DNA of 64,000 nucleotides from Eubacteriales bacterium (GCA_045543615.1 JAZPXL010000020.1:14107-78106), one strand, 5' to 3'. Shown: positions 53,566 to 60,768, counted from the stretch's first letter. A program made the numbers and translations. Notes: generated by a model from the sequence alone, not told the origin.

Positions 53566-53748
53566 AATGCAACCTCCTTTCGAGAAAAGGTAAATGAGCA
53601 TAGTTGTATAACTTATATTATACACTTAAAATGATAAAAAGTAAAGAGTTATTTTCGTCAATTTTCACTATTTATATATGATTGTTTGGGGTGGTTTTAG
53701 GGCAGAATAAAAAAATCAAAAAAAATTAAAAAAAGTTTGAAAAAAGGG

Positions 53749-53777
53749 TTGACAAACCAAGTTGCTTGTGGTATAAT
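53749..53777 (+). promoter_or_regulatory. Consensus sigma-A promoter of the tRNA operon
   Basis: TTGACA-17 nt-TATAAT with extended -10 TG and an A-rich upstream region. Confidence 0.9.
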
Positions 53778-53805
53778 AATGACCGTCGCCGATAAGGAGA
53801 CAGAT

Positions 53806-53881
53806 GGGAGCATAGCTCAGCTGGGAGAGCATCTGCCTTACAAGCAGAGGGTCATAGGTTCGAGCCCTATTGTTCCCACCA
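53806..53881 (+). tRNA. tRNA-Val(TAC)
   Basis: Cloverleaf; anticodon loop CT-TAC-AA; GTTCGA; encoded CCA. Confidence 0.97.
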
Positions 53882-53888
53882 ATTAAAT

Positions 53889-53965
53889 GGCCCGGTAGCT
53901 CAGTTGGTTAGAGCGCCAGCCTGTCACGCTGGAGGTCGTGGGTTCGAGCCCCATCCGGGTCGCCA
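53889..53965 (+). tRNA. tRNA-Asp(GTC)
   Basis: Anticodon loop CT-GTC-AC; CCA end. Confidence 0.97.
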
Positions 53966-53993
53966 TTTAATAAAAATACAGCCCTTGCTGTAT

Positions 53994-54069
53994 GCCTCTG
54001 TAGCTCAGTTGGTAGAGCAGGGGACTGAAAATCCCCGTGTCGTTGGTTCAATTCCGACCGGAGGCACCA
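53994..54069 (+). tRNA. tRNA-Phe(GAA)
   Basis: Anticodon loop CT-GAA-AA; CCA end. Confidence 0.97.
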
Positions 54070-54074
54070 TTTAT

Positions 54075-54150
54075 GCGGATTTAGCTCATTTGGTAGAGCG
54101 CAACCTTGCCAAGGTTGAGGTGGCGGGTTCGATCCCCGTAATCCGCTCCA
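54075..54150 (+). tRNA. tRNA-Gly(GCC)
   Basis: Anticodon loop TT-GCC-AA; CCA end. Confidence 0.97.
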
Positions 54151-54187
54151 AAAAACACGGGTACGAGATTCGTACCCGTTATTATTA

Positions 54188-54262
54188 GGCGCCATAGCCA
54201 AGCGGTAAGGCAGAAGTCTGCAAAACTTTTATTCCCCGGTCCGATTCCGGGTGGCGCCTCCA
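54188..54262 (+). tRNA. tRNA-Cys(GCA)
   Basis: Anticodon loop CT-GCA-AA; U73 discriminator; CCA end; atypical T-loop TCCGATT. Confidence 0.93.
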
Positions 54263-54299
54263 AAAAGAGCAGGACACCAAAAGGTGTCCTGCTCTTTTT
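54262..54299 (+). terminator. Terminator hairpin A, copy 1
   Basis: aaaaagagcaggacacc-aaaa-ggtgtcctgctcttttt. Confidence 0.85.
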
Positions 54300-54506
54300 G
54301 GACGTGCTACGCACGAACCGGACTGCGCTCGGCGTTTCAAGCAAAATCGGGCGCACTTCTCTTTACTTTTTCATCTGACTGCATTGGGAATCACAATGTA
54401 GCCGAATCCGGTTCGCATTCGCCACTCGGAGATCGGCAAGCTCGCTTGCCAGGCGTAGAGTGTGCGAATATTCGCCACAGGCGAAATTCCGGGAACGTGG
54501 CGCAAA

Positions 54507-54558
54507 ACCTCTTGCAATCCCCCCCAATGTATGCTATAATAAAACCAGAAAGGTGGTG
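54507..54558 (+). promoter_or_regulatory. Cassette promoter/RBS block P1, copy 1
   Basis: TTGCAA-17-TATAAT with TG extension, C7 spacer, AGAAAGGTGGTG. Confidence 0.8.
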
Positions 54559-54563
54559 AGAAT

Positions 54564-54929
54564 ATGAACACCAAGAATGTTAGTAAAACCAAAATATCTT
54601 TTTCCAAAATATCTTTTTTAATATTGCTTCTCCATTTTGTGTATGCGGCATTATTTGCAATTTTTATGTTGATTGCAGGATTGCTGGAGGAACCTTGTAA
54701 CAGAGATGGAATTTACTTGGTGTTTTCGATAATTTCGATAGCCCTTCTTTGCTTTTTCCCATTTGCTGCAACCGGCATAAATAATGCAAGTATTGCTTTT
54801 CAAATTCTGGCATTGCTACAAAACGAATCTAAGGTCAAGAACATTGTTATGATGGCGATTGCAATATCGTATGAAATTGCTGTTATTATATTCTTTATTT
54901 GGTTTTGGCAGGGCGCTATGGGAGTATAG
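54564..54929 (+). CDS. Cassette gene 1: small 3-TM membrane protein
   Basis: 121 aa, three hydrophobic segments, own promoter and RBS. Confidence 0.75.
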   Translation: MNTKNVSKTKISFSKISFLILLLHFVYAALFAIFMLIAGLLEEPCNRDGIYLVFSIISIALLCFFPFAATGINNASIAFQILALLQNESKVKNIVMMAIAISYEIAVIIFFIWFWQGAMGV

Positions 54930-54930
54930 C

Positions 54931-54994
54931 GGCATCTTTTTTGTCAACACGTCTCCAAAAATTAAAGCGACCTTTCGAGGTCGCTTTAATTTTT
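54931..54994 (+). repeat. Junction motif J1 plus terminator B
   Basis: GGCATCTTTTTTGTCAACACGTCTCCA then aaaattaaagcgacct-ttcg-aggtcgctttaatttt. Confidence 0.8.
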
Positions 54995-55230
54995 ATCCAA
55001 GCCGACGAAGGAGGCTTGGTATGTAATCAACGCGCTTGCGCGTTGTATGTAATTGCGACGGAGTCGCGCAGTATGGCATCACGCGCAAGCGTGTATAAAT
55101 TCGTCGGCTTGATAACATACAACACTTCGTGTTGATTCCATACCGCAACAAGTTGCGGATTACATTCAAGGCTACGCCTTGATTTCATCCACGCCTTCGG
55201 CGTGATGTGCGCTTCGCGCAAACGAATTTT
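54995..55230. repeat. Multi-hairpin REP/BIME-like module Y
   Basis: Short palindromes joined by GTATGTAATC / GATTACATAC-like linkers in opposite orientations; outer stem 54998-55009 with 55100-55111. Confidence 0.75.
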
Positions 55231-55235
55231 TCCTG

Positions 55236-55287
55236 ACCTCTTGCGCTCCCCCCCAATGTATGCTATAATAAACTCAGAAAGGCGGTG
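55236..55287 (+). promoter_or_regulatory. Cassette promoter/RBS block P1, copy 2
   Basis: TTGCGC-17-TATAAT, near-identical to 54507-54558. Confidence 0.8.
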
Positions 55288-55292
55288 GAGAT

Positions 55293-55769
55293 ATGCTCAT
55301 AAAAAAACAAGATTGTACAATGGACATTGATATTAAGAAAACAAAAGAGTATTATCAAACACATTCACTTTGTGATTGTCCCTGCTGTCGAAATTATTAT
55401 GCTCAAGTAAAACAAAGGTTTCAATTAGTGGATGAGTTATTGTCTGAATTTGGGGTGTCTATCGAGTGCCCTGACGAGCTTGGAAGTGTAGAATGGAAAG
55501 ACGAAATTCTATACATTTTCGCTTCGTATACCGTGTGTGGAAAAATCTTGGAACTTGATAAATACGAAATTGATATAAATGATGGCGGGTTGTTTTTGAA
55601 AATTGTCATTGGTGATGACTATGTTCCAAACGAACAGAAAACGGATTATTTTGTTGTAACGATTTACAATATAATTTTGCCTTGGGTGTTAAATGAGCCC
55701 TTTCCTACATCCGTTCCTTACAAAAATAGCTTTTTCGATAAAATCAAGTCGTTGTTTTTAAAAAAATAA
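55293..55769 (+). CDS. Cassette gene 2: hypothetical protein with a CxCxxC motif
   Basis: 158 aa; LCDCPCCRNY. Confidence 0.75.
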   Translation: MLIKKQDCTMDIDIKKTKEYYQTHSLCDCPCCRNYYAQVKQRFQLVDELLSEFGVSIECPDELGSVEWKDEILYIFASYTVCGKILELDKYEIDINDGGLFLKIVIGDDYVPNEQKTDYFVVTIYNIILPWVLNEPFPTSVPYKNSFFDKIKSLFLKK

Positions 55770-55817
55770 TAGGCATCTTTTTGCACGTGCTACGCACATC
55801 TCGCTACGTGCTCTGTG

Positions 55818-55943
55818 CGCCAAAGGTGCAACTGCTTGAAAGTTGCGCATTCATGCCGTCGGGGACGCCGGTCCCTACATTTTTTCTTCAACGTATTGCG
55901 CCCCGCCAAAAGATATGCTATAATAAGACCAAGAAAGGCGGTG
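55818..55943 (+). repeat. Module Z plus promoter P2, copy 1 (contains a GTAG-type REP on the minus strand)
   Basis: Near-identical to 56709-56834; TTGCGC-17-TATAAT; AGAAAGGCGGTG. Confidence 0.85.
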
Positions 55944-55948
55944 GAGAT

Positions 55949-56599
55949 ATGTTTAAGAGAATTTTTGCACTATTCATTTCGCTATTCACATTGGCAACAT
56001 TTACAGGTTGTAATGATACAAACGTTGAGCCTTTGAGTGATGAAGAAAAAGCCGCGCTTGTAAGCAACAGCTTCTCTTCGGATACGTTTTTTAACGTCAA
56101 AGAGGGAGAAGACCTGACAAGCGAAGAGATAAGAGATGTTGTTTCAAATATCCCATCAGAAAAATATGAGTCTTATCCCGACATACACAACATTCCACTT
56201 TCTGCAACACTCTACAAGGACGGAGAATCTATATTATTGGAGAGAAACGATCCCAGACTTATCGGGATCATCAATTTCTTTAACAACTGTGTTTATCATT
56301 CTCAATGCGCTTACACACAAGGACTGCTGTCCTTGGATTATCTTGAGGAAAACGTTACTGGTTCTGACTTCAGACTTGAACTGAAATACACACCGTGTAG
56401 CAATACAGCCCCCATGGCGTACGGCAAATCTACTACAGGGTGCGACACGATTATTATAACAAATTCTTCCTCGGGCTTTACATTGATAGCTCACGAGATT
56501 CCCGGATATGATGGCCAGGAGGAGGCGTATCCTTACAGTGCTATAGGATTCGCTCCGTTGTATAATAGTTACCCGTGGCTTGAGTTGTTTGGCTTTTGA
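55949..56599 (+). CDS. Cassette gene 3: hypothetical lipoprotein
   Basis: Start MFKRIF after RBS; lipobox FTGC; 216 aa. Confidence 0.75.
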   Translation: MFKRIFALFISLFTLATFTGCNDTNVEPLSDEEKAALVSNSFSSDTFFNVKEGEDLTSEEIRDVVSNIPSEKYESYPDIHNIPLSATLYKDGESILLERNDPRLIGIINFFNNCVYHSQCAYTQGLLSLDYLEENVTGSDFRLELKYTPCSNTAPMAYGKSTTGCDTIIITNSSSGFTLIAHEIPGYDGQEEAYPYSAIGFAPLYNSYPWLELFGF

Positions 56600-56609
56600 T
56601 ATTGCGAAT

Positions 56610-56672
56610 GGCATCTTTTTTGTCAACTCACCTCAAAAAGAGCAGGACACCTTTTGGTGTCCTGCTCTTTTT
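56610..56672 (+). repeat. Junction motif J3 plus terminator A, copy 2
   Basis: GGCATCTTTTTTGTCAACTCACCTCA then aaaagagcaggacacc-tttt-ggtgtcctgctcttttt. Confidence 0.85.
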
Positions 56673-56708
56673 GGACGTGCTACTCACAAAGCGCAACCCG
56701 GCTCCGCA

Positions 56709-56834
56709 CGCCAAAGGTACAACTGCTTGAAAGTTGCGCATTTGGACCGTCGAGGACGCCGGTCCCTACATTTTTTCTTCAACGTATTGCGCCCCGCCAA
56801 AAGATATGCTATAATAAGACCAAGAAAGGCGGTG
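56709..56834 (+). repeat. Module Z plus promoter P2, copy 2
   Basis: Direct repeat of 55818-55943; minus-strand GTAG-GGACCG...CGGTCC at 56744-56769. Confidence 0.85.
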
Positions 56835-56836
56835 AT

Positions 56837-57367
56837 ATGATGAGCAGTTATAATGGAATATCTATATCTGAATATCGTTTGCCCATTATGTATATAATTT
56901 ACATTCTTCTTGCTGTTGCTCTTATTATTGCTGCATTATTTTTACTTTGTCAAATATTAAACAATCAAAATAAAAAAACGATTCAAAGAATAAAAGAATT
57001 ACGTAAAAAAGCCGTAACCGATGAGCAGGCTGCCAAGCAATTAGCAAAAATGGAACGAAAAATCAAGAGGCGACGAAAGAAAAACAGAGGCGATTTGATT
57101 TTTTACGTATTTCTTTTCGCTTTGGTAATTGGATTTGAGTTATTCATTGTTATTGGCGGCATAGCCCCCTTGGTAACCGATCATATTGTTAAAGACTATG
57201 TTGTATATACAGGAGAAATAAAAGTTTGCGATAACTTTAAGCGTCCTTATATTGAGCTTGAAGATGGGACAATTGTAAGAGGTGGTACAGAACTTACAGA
57301 AGAAGACACCTACGGAACGGTTGTATATGCCAAAAGAAGCAAAATAGCACTTGGTGGTGAAAAATAA
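56837..57367 (+). CDS. Cassette gene 4: 2-TM membrane protein with a basic loop
   Basis: Start after AAAGGCGGTG; two TM segments flanking a K/R-rich coil. Confidence 0.75.
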   Translation: MMSSYNGISISEYRLPIMYIIYILLAVALIIAALFLLCQILNNQNKKTIQRIKELRKKAVTDEQAAKQLAKMERKIKRRRKKNRGDLIFYVFLFALVIGFELFIVIGGIAPLVTDHIVKDYVVYTGEIKVCDNFKRPYIELEDGTIVRGGTELTEEDTYGTVVYAKRSKIALGGEK

Positions 57368-57370
57368 AGC

Positions 57371-57431
57371 GGCTTCTTTTTTGTCAACACGTCTCAAAAA
57401 AATCCTGAAAGCTCTGCTTTCAGGATTTTTT
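57371..57431 (+). repeat. Junction motif J4 plus terminator C
   Basis: GGCTTCTTTTTTGTCAACACGTCTCA then aaaaaatcctgaaagc-tct-gctttcaggatttttt. Confidence 0.8.
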
Positions 57432-57592
57432 CATTTGTGTCCGCAGGACACAACATCATTTGAGCGTCAGCTCAACATCATTCCGCCGTAGGCGGACACA
57501 AATGAACGAGGTTGCACTTCGTGCAAATGATGTGCTTCGCAATGATGTGATGCTTCGCATCAATGATGTTGCGCTTCGCGCAAACGAATTTT
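57430..57592. repeat. Multi-hairpin REP/BIME-like module Y'
   Basis: Hairpins joined by AACATCATT / AATGATGT linkers; outer stem 57430-57444 with 57492-57506; ends in the same 23-mer as module Y. Confidence 0.75.
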
Positions 57593-57604
57593 GCCCCTCA
57601 GGTC

Positions 57605-57651
57605 TTGAAAAACACCGAAAACTGTGCTATAATAAAACCAGAAAGGCGGTG
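57605..57651 (+). promoter_or_regulatory. Cassette promoter/RBS block P3
   Basis: TTGAAA-17-TATAAT then AAAACCAGAAAGGCGGTG. Confidence 0.8.
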
Positions 57652-57656
57652 GGATT

Positions 57657-58085
57657 ATGAAAAACAAAAAATTACTTTTCATTATACTCGGTGTTTTAGT
57701 AGTTTGCTTTGTTGGAGCTACTTTTTTCTTTGTATCTCAAGGAATTTTGGCCTCAAATAAGGAACAGAAATATGTTGACTTTTATCGGAACGAAGCAGAA
57801 GAATATATTAAAGCGAATTCTGAAATGTTAAACAAGTACGGAGATGATTTTTCCGTTGACTTTGACAACTCAGTTACATATTCCTTAAGCGAAGAGAGAG
57901 GATTTTTTGATAGATATATTGAGCTCTTTGCTCCCAAGGTCCCCGACACAATTGAGGAATTCACCGATGGAATAGATGCAATAAAATTCGGTTTTGAGAT
58001 CAAAAGAGACAAATACGAAATAATTTTTGAGAAAAATAGCGATGGAGAGCTTGTTGTTACAAATCTGTCGGAAAAAAACAAATAA
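57657..58085 (+). CDS. Cassette gene 5: secreted or membrane-anchored hypothetical protein
   Basis: 142 aa; basic N-terminus plus hydrophobic stretch. Confidence 0.75.
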   Translation: MKNKKLLFIILGVLVVCFVGATFFFVSQGILASNKEQKYVDFYRNEAEEYIKANSEMLNKYGDDFSVDFDNSVTYSLSEERGFFDRYIELFAPKVPDTIEEFTDGIDAIKFGFEIKRDKYEIIFEKNSDGELVVTNLSEKNK

Positions 58086-58091
58086 TATTTC

Positions 58092-58239
58092 GACGTCTTT
58101 TTTGTCATTCGCCCGAACTCAAACGCACCCGAAAGGGTGCGTTTTGTATTGGCAAACGTATCTGAAGCGCATCGCTCTCCGCACGCCAAAGGTAAAACTG
58201 ATTGAAAGTTGCGCATTCATGCCGTCGGGGACGACGGTC
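58092..58239 (+). repeat. Degenerate junction J5, hairpin D and partial module Z
   Basis: GACGTCTTTTTTGTCA; aaacgcacc...ggtgcgttt; cgccaaaggta..ttgaaagttgcgcattcatgccgtcggggacg. Confidence 0.7.
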
Positions 58240-58375
58240 GCTGTGGTTTTCTCCAATCTCTTGCTTATCGCCACAAAGTGTGTTATAATAAATTATGATT
58301 ATTCGGACTATTGCGGAGAGACACCGTGGACGGAATTAATTGAGCAGTACATAGAAAAATAAGTGATAATTATAG

Positions 58376-58591
58376 GAGTTTGGGCTATCGCCAATACAAT
58401 ATATCAATGACATAAAGATGAGGAGGGGTATGTATTTGCTTGAGACTACGTCAAGGCCCGTCGGTGAGACAGCCTATGAGTGTGGATTTTCAGATTATCC
58501 CTATTTTTACAAGCGATTTGTGCGCAAGACAGGTCTGTCTCCTATGCGACGGGGACGGCAGATTCATCAAAACCCACACTCGAGGAAATAG
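58376..58591 (+). pseudogene. AraC C-terminal HTH remnant
   Basis: Translates EFGLSPIQYINDIKM...LLETTSRPVGETAYECGFSDYPYFYKRFVRKTGLSP; in-frame TAG directly upstream. Confidence 0.7.
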
Positions 58592-58731
58592 CCACAAGAA
58601 AATGCAGGGGAAATATTGAAATTATCAAACCGGTTGTGATATAATATAAAAAATATGTTGAGTATGTTTGTTGTGTTTTATATTAGTTTCTGCTTGTCGG
58701 CAGGAGAAAATTTTTTAATGGAGTTGTTGTT

Positions 58732-60768
58732 ATGAAAAAGTTATTTGTTGCGCTTTTGTGTGCGGTTCTATTGCTTTCCGTACTATTATTGAGTGCTTGC
58801 ACTCCTGACTCGCCTAACACACCACAGGGCGAGGAGAGCACTCCCGATGGCGTCGGTGAGGTTTTGGGCTCTGAAGGCTTGACCTACGAGCTTAACTGGC
58901 AGGGCAACGGCTATATCGTTACAGGTAAGGGAACTTGCACAGACAAGAGGGTCGTTATCCCCTCGACATATAATGGATTGCCCGTTCTTAGCATTGGAAA
59001 TGGAGCATTCAGCGAGAAAACGCCTCCAAGCGATAATAATCAATCGGGTGGCACTACCAATGATAAAGACAAAAAGGGGCTTGGAGTGTTCGCTTTTGGC
59101 ACAAGAACACTTTCGTCTATCACCTCTTCAATTAGCTTTAGCTTGCTGTCGGACACCTCTGCCACGGATGGCGATGGTATTACAGAGGTTGTTATTCCAG
59201 ACAGCGTGATGGATATTGGCGACAATGCGTTCTATGGTTGCGAATCGCTTGCTTCCTTTGAGGTTTCAAATCTGGTTAACCTTATTGGAACTGACGCTTT
59301 CAAGGATACGGCGTACTATCTCGATGAGTCAAACTGGACGGGGGACGCTTTGTATTTGGAAGAATATTTAGTGGCAGTTCGCCCCACTGTTGTCGGCGAG
59401 TGGGTGGTGCGTGATGGCACAGTAAATATTGCAAGCAATGCCTTTGAGGGATGTGTTGGTATTACGTCAGTTTCTTTTCCTTCGTCTTTGCGTTTTGTTG
59501 GAAAGATGGCATTTATGGGATGCACTGGAATCACGGAGATTGATTTAACTATTCCCGGCATTCAAATTGAAAACTACGCATTTAAGGATTGCACATCTCT
59601 TACAACTATTATGATTGGTACGGACGACATTCCAAATGCACCACCTGTTGAGTCTTTTTGGGGTGTAGGTCTTGAGGGAGATGCCGTATTTATGCCGGGT
59701 GGAGTTTCGGATATTGCATTCAATCCCAAAGCCGATCCGAATTATATCTACTCAGGATCTATTGGTCATCAGGCTTTCTGTGGATGCACATCTCTTACAT
59801 CCGTAACTCTTGGCTCAAATATTGGCTATCTTGGAGGCTTCATATTTGAGGGTTGCTCTGCGCTCAAAGAAGTCGATTTGAGTATGATTAAGGTTTATAC
59901 ACCCGATACAGTCATTGTAACGCCCGGATACAATCACCGTTGGCATATGTCACTTCAGGGCATATTCAAGGATTGTACATCGCTTGTAGACATCAAGCTA
60001 CCTGAGGGTATTGCTTGGCTTGACAGAACCTTTGAGGGCTGTACATCTATCACGGAATTTGTTGTGCCTGATACAGTAAAGGGGCTTAACGGAACATTCA
60101 TCAACTGTTCGTCTCTTCTGAGTGTAAGCATTCCCGAAAGTGTGGTGGCTCTGTCAAAAACATTTATAAATTGTAGTGCTCTCCGTGAGATTACTCTTCC
60201 TCAAAAGCTTGTAAAGATTGGTGACGAAACTTTCTTTTACTGTAATTCGCTTATATATGTATATGTTCCCGACTCTGTTACAGAGATCGGCAATCAAGTT
60301 TTTGTGGGCAATCCTGAGGTAGGTATGAACGTTTCCTTTGGTAAAGGAGTGGAGAAGGTCTTTGATGATTGCGTAACAACTGCTGATGCAATTGTGTTCC
60401 GAGGAACTGTGGAAGAGTGGAAAAAATCTCCGTTTTATAATAAAGTTAATTGCCACAACCCACTCGGAGCGGGCTCTGATGTTATTTGCACAGATGGAAC
60501 AATAATCGGAGATGATGTTGTTGTTGATACTATGAAGGGTATTAAGCTCTCCGACGGCACTCTTTATGTAAGCTTTAAGGACGTTACTTTTCAATACACT
60601 CCGGGTGTTATTGAATCGGTAATATCTCGCAGTCTTGATGAAATAGAGGCAGAGCTTGTGTCAAGTGGATCGATGAGCTGGACGAGAGTCAAAGCAATTG
60701 ATCTGTTGCAGACTAAAACGAATCGAAATATATCTACATACGGCCATATCAGAGAAATGATACAGTAA
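58732..60768 (+). CDS. BspA-type leucine-rich repeat lipoprotein
   Basis: Lipobox LSAC; many IPDSV..IG..AF.GC.SL repeats. Confidence 0.88.
   Translation: MKKLFVALLCAVLLLSVLLLSACTPDSPNTPQGEESTPDGVGEVLGSEGLTYELNWQGNGYIVTGKGTCTDKRVVIPSTYNGLPVLSIGNGAFSEKTPPSDNNQSGGTTNDKDKKGLGVFAFGTRTLSSITSSISFSLLSDTSATDGDGITEVVIPDSVMDIGDNAFYGCESLASFEVSNLVNLIGTDAFKDTAYYLDESNWTGDALYLEEYLVAVRPTVVGEWVVRDGTVNIASNAFEGCVGITSVSFPSSLRFVGKMAFMGCTGITEIDLTIPGIQIENYAFKDCTSLTTIMIGTDDIPNAPPVESFWGVGLEGDAVFMPGGVSDIAFNPKADPNYIYSGSIGHQAFCGCTSLTSVTLGSNIGYLGGFIFEGCSALKEVDLSMIKVYTPDTVIVTPGYNHRWHMSLQGIFKDCTSLVDIKLPEGIAWLDRTFEGCTSITEFVVPDTVKGLNGTFINCSSLLSVSIPESVVALSKTFINCSALREITLPQKLVKIGDETFFYCNSLIYVYVPDSVTEIGNQVFVGNPEVGMNVSFGKGVEKVFDDCVTTADAIVFRGTVEEWKKSPFYNKVNCHNPLGAGSDVICTDGTIIGDDVVVDTMKGIKLSDGTLYVSFKDVTFQYTPGVIESVISRSLDEIEAELVSSGSMSWTRVKAIDLLQTKTNRNISTYGHIREMIQ

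Follow-up and report, generated by a model that had tools for sequence, protein, structure and literature searches.

How does a row of single-gene units come to stand behind one tRNA gene, and what do the junctions between these units record? The question is raised by a 64,000-nucleotide stretch of DNA from an Eubacteriales bacterium (GCA_045543615.1, JAZPXL010000020.1:14107-78106; hereafter the window), an uncultured gut Clostridia bacterium in which a tRNA-Cys gene is followed, on its own strand, by five cassettes of one small gene each, every gene with its own promoter and terminator (Table 1). A cassette unit consists of a terminator, a spacer of several short, differing hairpins, a promoter, a near-perfect Shine-Dalgarno sequence (AGAAAGGCGGTG) and one open reading frame (ORF), and it closes with an 18-nt box, GGCATCTTTTTTGTCAAC, here called ARM, and six further bases. 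The promoter is of the sigma-70 type with an extended -10 element (TGCTATAATAA) and is present in six copies in the window (repeat family D1). On balance, we favour the view that such arrays are built up as units are inserted in series, and site-specifically, at the CA in the CCA end of the tRNA by an enzyme that is not linked to the array.

ARM ends three of the cassettes, at the junctions J1, J3 and, with one change, J4. At all three it is followed by 6 nt, the dinucleotide CA (CCA at J1), a run of A residues and a strong hairpin (ΔG -20 to -35), and the original prediction, which described a junction motif followed by a terminator at these sites, is borne out. Its description of J5 as degenerate also holds, as this junction departs from ARM at three positions and has 8 additional bases as well as a weaker hairpin. 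The inverted TTTTTG/CAAAAA arms that it placed around the core correspond simply to the T-run within ARM and the terminator's A-run and do not form a specific inverted repeat. It passed over a truncated junction, J2, where the T-run of ARM is fused to sequence of the kind that usually stands behind a terminator; this junction is without GTCAAC, core or terminator and looks like a deletion between the T-run of ARM and the T-run of a terminator. The 13-nt core of ARM, CTTTTTTGTCAAC, has exactly three copies in the window, which are the only ones in the whole 2.12-Mb genome; when up to two mismatches are allowed, the window holds seven matches versus 2.97 expected. The TTGACA in inverted ARM was considered as an antisense promoter and dropped, as no conserved -10 element follows it in the sequence.

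The arrangement of the junctions is best seen across relatives (G, L and C numbers are our handles for genomes, loci and contigs). The profile behind ARM is A (77%), C (96%), G (77%), followed by three variable bases, C, A and an A-run; in 38 of the 51 junctions with an A-run, this run starts 7 nt downstream of GTCAAC. ARM is unchanged across metagenome-assembled genomes (MAGs) of many families, and it is the ORFs and the three variable bases that differ. When 85 non-redundant ARM contexts were classified by their right-hand partner, 58 had a hairpin, with CA at positions 7-8 in 49 of these; 12 had an inverted tRNA end, with the mirror dinucleotide TG in 11; eight entries had an inverted ARM (ARM'), corresponding to four palindromes; and seven had another partner. 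The palindromes, at L075, L088 (two) and L112, have the form ARM-6 nt-CA-6 nt-ARM' (24-2-24, ~50 bp). On the tRNA-Cys side, 31 distinct contexts comprise 28 with a direct hairpin, two with inverted ARM after 6 nt (G031 and L087) and one with neither (L071), and the inverted-ARM joint of L087 recurs at tRNA-Cys in G184. An attL-type joint of this kind (tRNA-CCA, 5-6 nt, ARM') is also found at tRNA-Leu(caa) (L100, G106) and tRNA-Met (G055, with one ARM mismatch). All four junction types, tRNA/terminator, tRNA/ARM', ARM/terminator and ARM/ARM', are present, and the only base pairs common to them are CA. Since every combination of half-sites exists, the set shows the attB/attL/attR/attP pattern of reciprocal site-specific recombination, and the features expected of cassette islands of large serine recombinases were found, namely ~50-bp palindromes, a 2-nt shared core, and hybrid tRNA/ARM' and ARM/terminator joints.

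In the mechanism that we propose, small mobile gene cassettes would have been added in succession at the precise 3' end of the tRNA-Cys gene, and junctions of the J1-J5 type would be their element-side ends (attR-type joints). ARM and the following 6 nt would form the element-side half-site. The dinucleotide CA at the joint corresponds to the final two bases of the tRNA's CCA, and the tRNA is left whole. The tRNA transcript is now ended by the terminator of the incoming unit, and the former tRNA terminator stands behind the new ORF. The joints are presumably made by a site-specific recombinase acting in trans. By the general properties of these enzymes, a crossover of ~2 nt combined with a 24-2-24 palindromic donor would be less in keeping with a tyrosine recombinase than with a large serine recombinase or with a transposase that duplicates 2 nt. 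A tyrosine-recombinase model with an 8-nt overlap was dropped because the 8 nt are not common to the partners.

At L088, the inverted boxes enclose an RtcB gene and, separately, a second gene, and nearly the same 7-8 nt stand between the elements; the RtcB RNA-ligase cassette (L088:2451-4018, in an Oscillospiraceae MAG; PF01139, E 5e-53) lies between two ARM/ARM' palindromes. A conserved module of ~190 nt with a terminator (GAAAAACCCGAGATTTTCTCGGGTTTTC) stands to the right of ARM' in L075, L088, L112 and L091, and its second hairpin is built from AAAAAGATGCC..GGCATTTTT, which repeats part of ARM. This module could be a small RNA or a binding platform.

How firmly are the junctions tied to the end of the tRNA gene? 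It had been claimed that they mimic the tRNA-Cys 3' end, and J1 indeed matches 7 of the last 10 bases of tRNA-Cys without a gap (p ~0.004 for one anchored alignment, by our own binomial estimate), whereas J3 and J4 match only with one C dropped. The likeness could be due to chance, with the repeats being merely the tails of related terminators, as most junctions have only CA in common with the tRNA and an A-run must begin after some non-A base. However, a 254-nt block that begins exactly at the CTCCA of J1 is found, with 87% identity and the first 60 nt identical, directly after tRNA-Cys in G369, which belongs to another genus of the same family, and to the left of CTCCA the window (ARM) and G369 (tRNA body) are unrelated. 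Because the block that includes CTCCA directly follows tRNA-Cys in G369, the likeness of J1 to the tRNA end is real, and by its sequence the CTCCA of J1 is a displaced copy of that end. The right flank of J3 is a second copy of the terminator that follows tRNA-Cys in the same genome (88% over 60 nt) and is found after tRNA-Cys in G022, and the right flank of J4 stands after tRNA-Cys in G001, G025 and L104 and after tRNA-Ala in the own genome. In a comparison of 69 ARM junctions, taken from the window and 43 related loci, 30 had a right flank that was 72-98% identical over 27-135 nt to DNA directly after a tRNA CCA in another genome, with the homology beginning 0-8 nt before the CCA end; the tRNA partners of these flanks are mostly tRNA-Cys and sometimes Gly(gcc), Ala, Trp or Tyr. 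Chance is contradicted by this comparison and by the G369 block, and also by an 8-nt identity in G025, where the repeat CGCCTCCAAAAA stands on both sides of a cassette, by partial tRNA-Cys end copies of 10-12 nt inside arrays before ARM' (three times in L091, and in G251), and by the tie of ARM to tRNA-Cys described below, so that we regard it as very improbable and close to excluded. The part of the claim that does not stand is a mimic of 7-8 nt as a general feature, since exact CTCCA occurs in 2 of 12 first junctions and the constant part of the junctions is only CA.

The G025 cassette also bears on the order of events. On one side of it is tRNA-Cys, and on the other a module that in G007, G029 and G034 adjoins tRNA-Cys itself, and thus a filled site can be set against three empty ones. 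For this reason, newer units seem to push older ones outward, each bringing its own terminator, as the original prediction had it. The decay from a best-preserved J1 to a worst-preserved J5 that was read as a trace of this process is not a general gradient along arrays. Separately, the ends of two tRNA-Cys genes are of interest: at L238 and L240 (G319 and G345), ARAGORN ends the gene at ..GGTGCCT, and TCA replaces CCA before the A-run, which is the same YCA as found at most ARM junctions.

The distribution of ARM is narrow. Of 24 junctions with a visible upstream tRNA gene on their strand, 23 have tRNA-Cys as the nearest one and one, in G014, has tRNA-Arg(ccg); a sample of the order adds six tRNA-Cys cases. 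In five further genomes, the ARM matches fall almost entirely in one contig region (8 of 9 in G062, 5 of 5 in G063, 4 of 5 in G066, 3 of 4 in G065 and 2 of 5 in G064), and ARM is essentially confined to one locus per genome, almost only behind tRNA-Cys. The region behind tRNA-Cys is assembled in 17 genomes of the genus: a forward ARM was found in seven of them, ARM' immediately following the tRNA in one, and neither in the other nine. In the order sample of 401 genomes, an ARM match with at most one mismatch was found in 39 and a reversed control pattern in eight; the exact matches in G141 and G159 were left out, as they lie inside a coding gene. ARM-bearing related MAGs are labelled Clostridia, Eubacteriales or Oscillospiraceae and come from animal guts. 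A search over 185,579 species genomes returned at least 129 stretches, many of them chance matches in unrelated phyla, from which ~31 loci in Clostridia, Eubacteriales and Oscillospiraceae MAGs were retained by their context. Ten exact ARM matches in IMG/VR, five of which share one conserved context and two another, were read as unrelated because none adjoins a tRNA or a cassette-like context. The palindromic site had no match in phage and plasmid collections, where a low-complexity filter may hide one. At most 0.29 of the array's words were present in any public sequencing run. Metagenome contigs break at the promoter/Shine-Dalgarno region and at ARM, with other ORFs in between.

Several observations weigh against serial insertion by a dedicated recombinase, the first of which concern the enzyme. 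None of the arrays examined contains or adjoins a recombinase gene: no tyrosine or serine recombinase (PF00589, PF00239) is encoded in the window array or in the array contigs of G062-G066, and a Pfam search of larger ORFs selected from related array loci likewise returned no recombinase. The own genome has five tyrosine-recombinase matches (Xer-like, phage-type and one partial copy) and one large serine recombinase, which is encoded on contig C25, away from the array. Genus relatives of the latter are only 27-62% identical and patchy, without a conserved orthologue, and the ARM-bearing genomes G022 and G029 have no match to it at all. Serine integrases are not known to recombine attR-type with attB-type sites, and the cassettes in the window are without ARM' at their left ends. 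Logan contigs of four sequencing runs contained no bridging contig, circle or clean excision joint. The remaining points concern the exchange itself: spacers are >90% identical up to just before the -35 box, beyond which the promoter-ORF-ARM units differ, so that there is a second swap point; deletions between T-runs are seen both at J2 and in the metagenome contig L228; and the cores of arrays behind other tRNA genes are not matched to the tRNA.

This last result comes from arrays behind tRNA-Ala, Tyr, Met, Trp, Ser(tga) and Gln(ttg), which end in another box, ARM-B (CACCTTTTGTTCGYTTTTACCTC ... TTTAAGGCA). It had been suggested to examine whether arrays at other tRNA genes carry cores matching those tRNA ends, and the answer is negative, as the ARM-B core (..TTTAAGGCA) is the same whatever the tRNA.

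A serious rival, which we rate as unlikely, is passive modular shuffling with no dedicated recombinase, in which ARM would be a functional 3' untranslated region or a terminator-linked element of small genes. Arrays would grow and swap parts through homologous recombination among conserved copies of the promoter, ARM and the spacers, and through slippage where A- and T-runs flank hairpins, with the conserved tRNA cluster as the left homology anchor, and CCA or CA would travel with terminators that once followed tRNAs. It would account for the lack of a linked recombinase, for ARM-B cores that are independent of tRNA identity, for breakpoints that are all at A- or T-runs beside hairpins, for the swap point upstream of the -35 box, for J2 and L228 as T-run deletions and for the scattering of the same spacers over 33 loci of the genome. 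Indeed, the second swap point and the T-run deletions indicate that part of the shuffling is driven by homology or microhomology. However, an RNA element would have no reason to stand inverted, directly behind a tRNA, or head-to-head with a fixed 14-nt gap. Moreover, the interval of 6 nt plus CA does not vary across families, and ARM stays at the tRNA-Cys locus though the spacers are common to arrays at other tRNA genes.

Returning to site-specific insertion, which enzyme could be responsible? All four full-length tyrosine recombinases of the own genome score far below the NCBIfam integron-integrase cut-offs, and none of them is on the array contig, C20. The original prediction had offered an alternative based on the likeness of TCAA to a right-end cleavage site, that is, IS200/IS605-type single-strand transposition by an HUH (Y1) enzyme, and many cores do read YCAA with a hairpin beside each joint. 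However, these hairpins are different terminators whose sequence differs from junction to junction, rather than conserved subterminal hairpins, and the elements have inverted terminal boxes, which the IS200/IS605 family is not known to carry. Moreover, the own genome, which is 96% complete, has no match to the Y1 transposase family (PF01797). The alternative thus fails; it is close to refuted and we give it hardly any weight. The search for the enzyme thus found neither a recombinase linked to the arrays nor an HUH transposase in the genome. One array ORF, in L107, encodes a DDE transposase according to Pfam. The one lead for the enzyme is a truncated large-serine-recombinase gene (G002:C11:53-1219, at L071), which lies ~0.8 kb downstream of tRNA-Cys and converges on it.

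Among known systems, islands that are anchored at a tRNA gene and arise by repeated integration come closest in concept. Tycheposon islands of Prochlorococcus consist of tRNA-targeted integrative elements that, in the part of the source on which we draw, have their own tyrosine recombinase, many genes and attachment sites of typically ~40 nt (10.1101/2020.12.28.424599). Within that description, the likeness lies in the insertion at a tRNA gene, the partial tRNA repeats at the borders (here CTCCA at J1, 8 nt in G025 and 10-12 nt in L091 and G251), the repeated insertion at the same site and the newcomers that push older elements deeper. In contrast to the tycheposons as so described, the units here are single-gene units of ~0.7-0.9 kb without a recombinase, the shared core is 2-12 nt rather than tens of bases, and the element side is marked by a conserved end box of 18-24 nt that is not derived from the tRNA. 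A second parallel is the composite islands of the staphylococcal cassette chromosome (SCC), in which Ccr large serine recombinases act at the 3' end of rlmH/orfX. Common to both are serial insertions at the 3' end of a single conserved gene, joints with short direct repeats and element ends with imperfect inverted repeats, and SCC units without a recombinase can be moved in trans. Here, however, the arrays and their surroundings show no Ccr-like gene, a tRNA end serves as the target and each unit is a single-gene transcription unit.

Chromosomal integrons and clusters of attC sites lacking integron-integrases (CALINs) are likewise one-way arrays of single-gene cassettes, mostly of unknown function, with a conserved recombination-type end box. 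In contrast to these, IntI is absent here, each cassette has its own extended -10 promoter and terminator, the anchor is a tRNA gene and not attI, and the end box is a fixed, conserved sequence, whereas the attC site of integrons is defined by structure. The array is not an integron, because there is no IntI and the cassettes carry promoters. Orphan-immunity arrays of Bacteroidales, the recombinase-associated acquired interbacterial defence (rAID-1) clusters (10.1101/471110), are also arrays of small genes with conserved intergenic repeats between them. As far as the part of that source considered here goes, they differ in the linked recombinase from which they take their name, as none is linked to the array in the window. 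In a relative, the product of at least one ARM cassette is SUFU-like, and the SUFU fold is used by immunity proteins. The arrays thus differ from known tRNA-anchored islands in their one-gene units with own promoters, the lack of an element-borne recombinase, the very short shared core and the fixed end box, and no description of such arrays in Clostridia was found in our searches of the literature.

A broader reading, which has to be taken as a whole and which we consider tentative and short of probable, is that gut Clostridia possess a cassette-capture system that fills the role of integrons and is built differently. One-gene units ending in a fixed 24-nt half-site would be inserted by an unlinked recombinase through a 2-nt (CA) crossover at the CCA end of tRNA-Cys, from a 24-2-24 palindromic donor, and sister systems with other end boxes would operate at most other tRNA genes. 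If so, tRNA 3' ends would be a general platform for the acquisition of single genes. Insertion of cassettes at the tRNA end, if real, would by itself offer small-genome gut anaerobes a compact means of gathering and trading individual accessory genes with no integrase linked to them. The cassette genes encode mostly uncharacterised membrane proteins, lipoproteins and possibly immunity-type proteins. As both the donor site (the 50-bp palindrome) and the target (the tRNA-Cys end plus terminator) are defined, candidate recombinases are directly testable. Arrays anchored at tRNA genes would also explain why MAGs of this group break at tRNA loci.

Table 1. Coordinates of the array features and of example spacer loci; positions without a contig name are counted from the first base of the window
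Feature	Position	Strand	Description
tRNA cluster Val-Asp-Phe-Gly(gcc)-Cys	53806..54262	+	ARAGORN; Rfam tRNA matches
tRNA-Cys, array anchor	54188..54262	+	3' end ..GGCGCCTCCA at 54262
S1, 'basal' spacer module	54263..54505	+	terminator hairpin 54263-54301 directly after CCA
Cassette 1	54506..54929	+	promoter TTGCAA, 17 nt, TGCTATAAT; Shine-Dalgarno AGAAAGGTGGTG; ORF1
ORF1	54564..54929	+	121 amino acids, membrane protein
J1	54931..54994	+	ARM 54931-54948, ACGT, CTCCA (54953-57), A-run, terminator hairpin ΔG -23.2
Cassette 2	55235..55769	+	promoter, Shine-Dalgarno, ORF2
ORF2	55293..55769	+	158 amino acids
J2, truncated	55772..55797	+	GGCATCTTTTT joined straight to GCACGTGCTACGCAC (repeat family D10)
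Cassette 3	55890..56599	+	promoter, Shine-Dalgarno, ORF3
ORF3	55949..56599	+	216 amino acids, lipoprotein signal
J3	56610..56673	+	ARM 56610-56627, TCACCT, CA, terminator hairpin ΔG -35.2
Cassette 4	56781..57367	+	promoter, Shine-Dalgarno, ORF4
ORF4	56837..57367	+	176 amino acids, membrane protein
J4	57371..57431	+	GGCTTCTTTTTTGTCAAC (GGCTTC..., 57371-57388), ACGTCT, CA, terminator 57397-57431, ΔG -20.4
Cassette 5	57599..58085	+	promoter, Shine-Dalgarno, ORF5
ORF5	57657..58085	+	142 amino acids
J5, degenerate	58092..58147	+	ARM copy GACGTCTTTTTTGTCATT (58092-58109), extra bases, ACTCAAAC, hairpin
Sixth spacer and promoter copy, stranded front end (array end)	58165..58300	+	without Shine-Dalgarno, without ORF behind
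Spacer loci, examples	C7:17168-17805, C41:21678-26817, C55:38399-43220, C28:6133-9160; window 54990-55230, 57432-57600		

The proteins encoded by the window cassettes are little characterised. None of the five matches a Pfam family above the cut-off, PADLOC gave no usable match, and neither search indicates an immunity function for them. ORF2 belongs to a genuine protein family that includes unnamed clusters of Bacillota, and the tRNA-Cys array of G007 encodes a homologue; ORF3 is also found in unnamed Bacillota protein clusters and has relatives in metagenomes. In Rfam at a permissive threshold, the region 53700-58800 gave the five tRNAs and sub-threshold noise only. The basal module S1 is 78-89% identical to DNA after tRNA-Cys in G029, G034 and G025; its hairpin is followed by a degenerate inverted copy of the tRNA-Cys 3' end (GGACGTGCTACGCACGAACCGGAC) and then by a decayed direct copy (~54329-54341), and both copies are better preserved in G010, G026 and G028.

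The spacers are strings of short hairpins with differing stems and a fixed word between them, of the ATATCAT, ACATCATT, GAAATCC or AATGATG types. These words occur in both orientations, and the spacers resemble arrays of repetitive extragenic palindromes and bacterial interspersed mosaic elements (REP/BIME); despite this resemblance, the own genome has no Y1/RAYT gene. Of the 33 own-genome loci with spacer copies, 11 adjoin tRNA genes and many are at contig ends. A different conserved element (..GAAGAACCTCTACACCTCGC..GCGAGGTGTAATATTTGCGCAC..) is found in the own genome after the terminators of tRNA-Pro(ggg), Thr(cgt), Pro(cgg), Ser(gga, cga), Lys and Leu(tag), and possibly represents a second type of tRNA-linked module. 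The first gene behind tRNA-Trp (G000:C41:21919-22284) encodes a four-helix-bundle '23S rRNA intervening sequence protein' (PF05635, E 1e-27), and the first gene behind tRNA-Tyr (C55:42300-42629) is, judged by eye, a candidate look-alike of it. Just past the array in the window, a short ORF (58418-58591) resembles by eye a fragment of an AraC-type helix-turn-helix protein, and the next gene (58732-60768) encodes a BspA-type leucine-rich repeat lipoprotein (PF13306).

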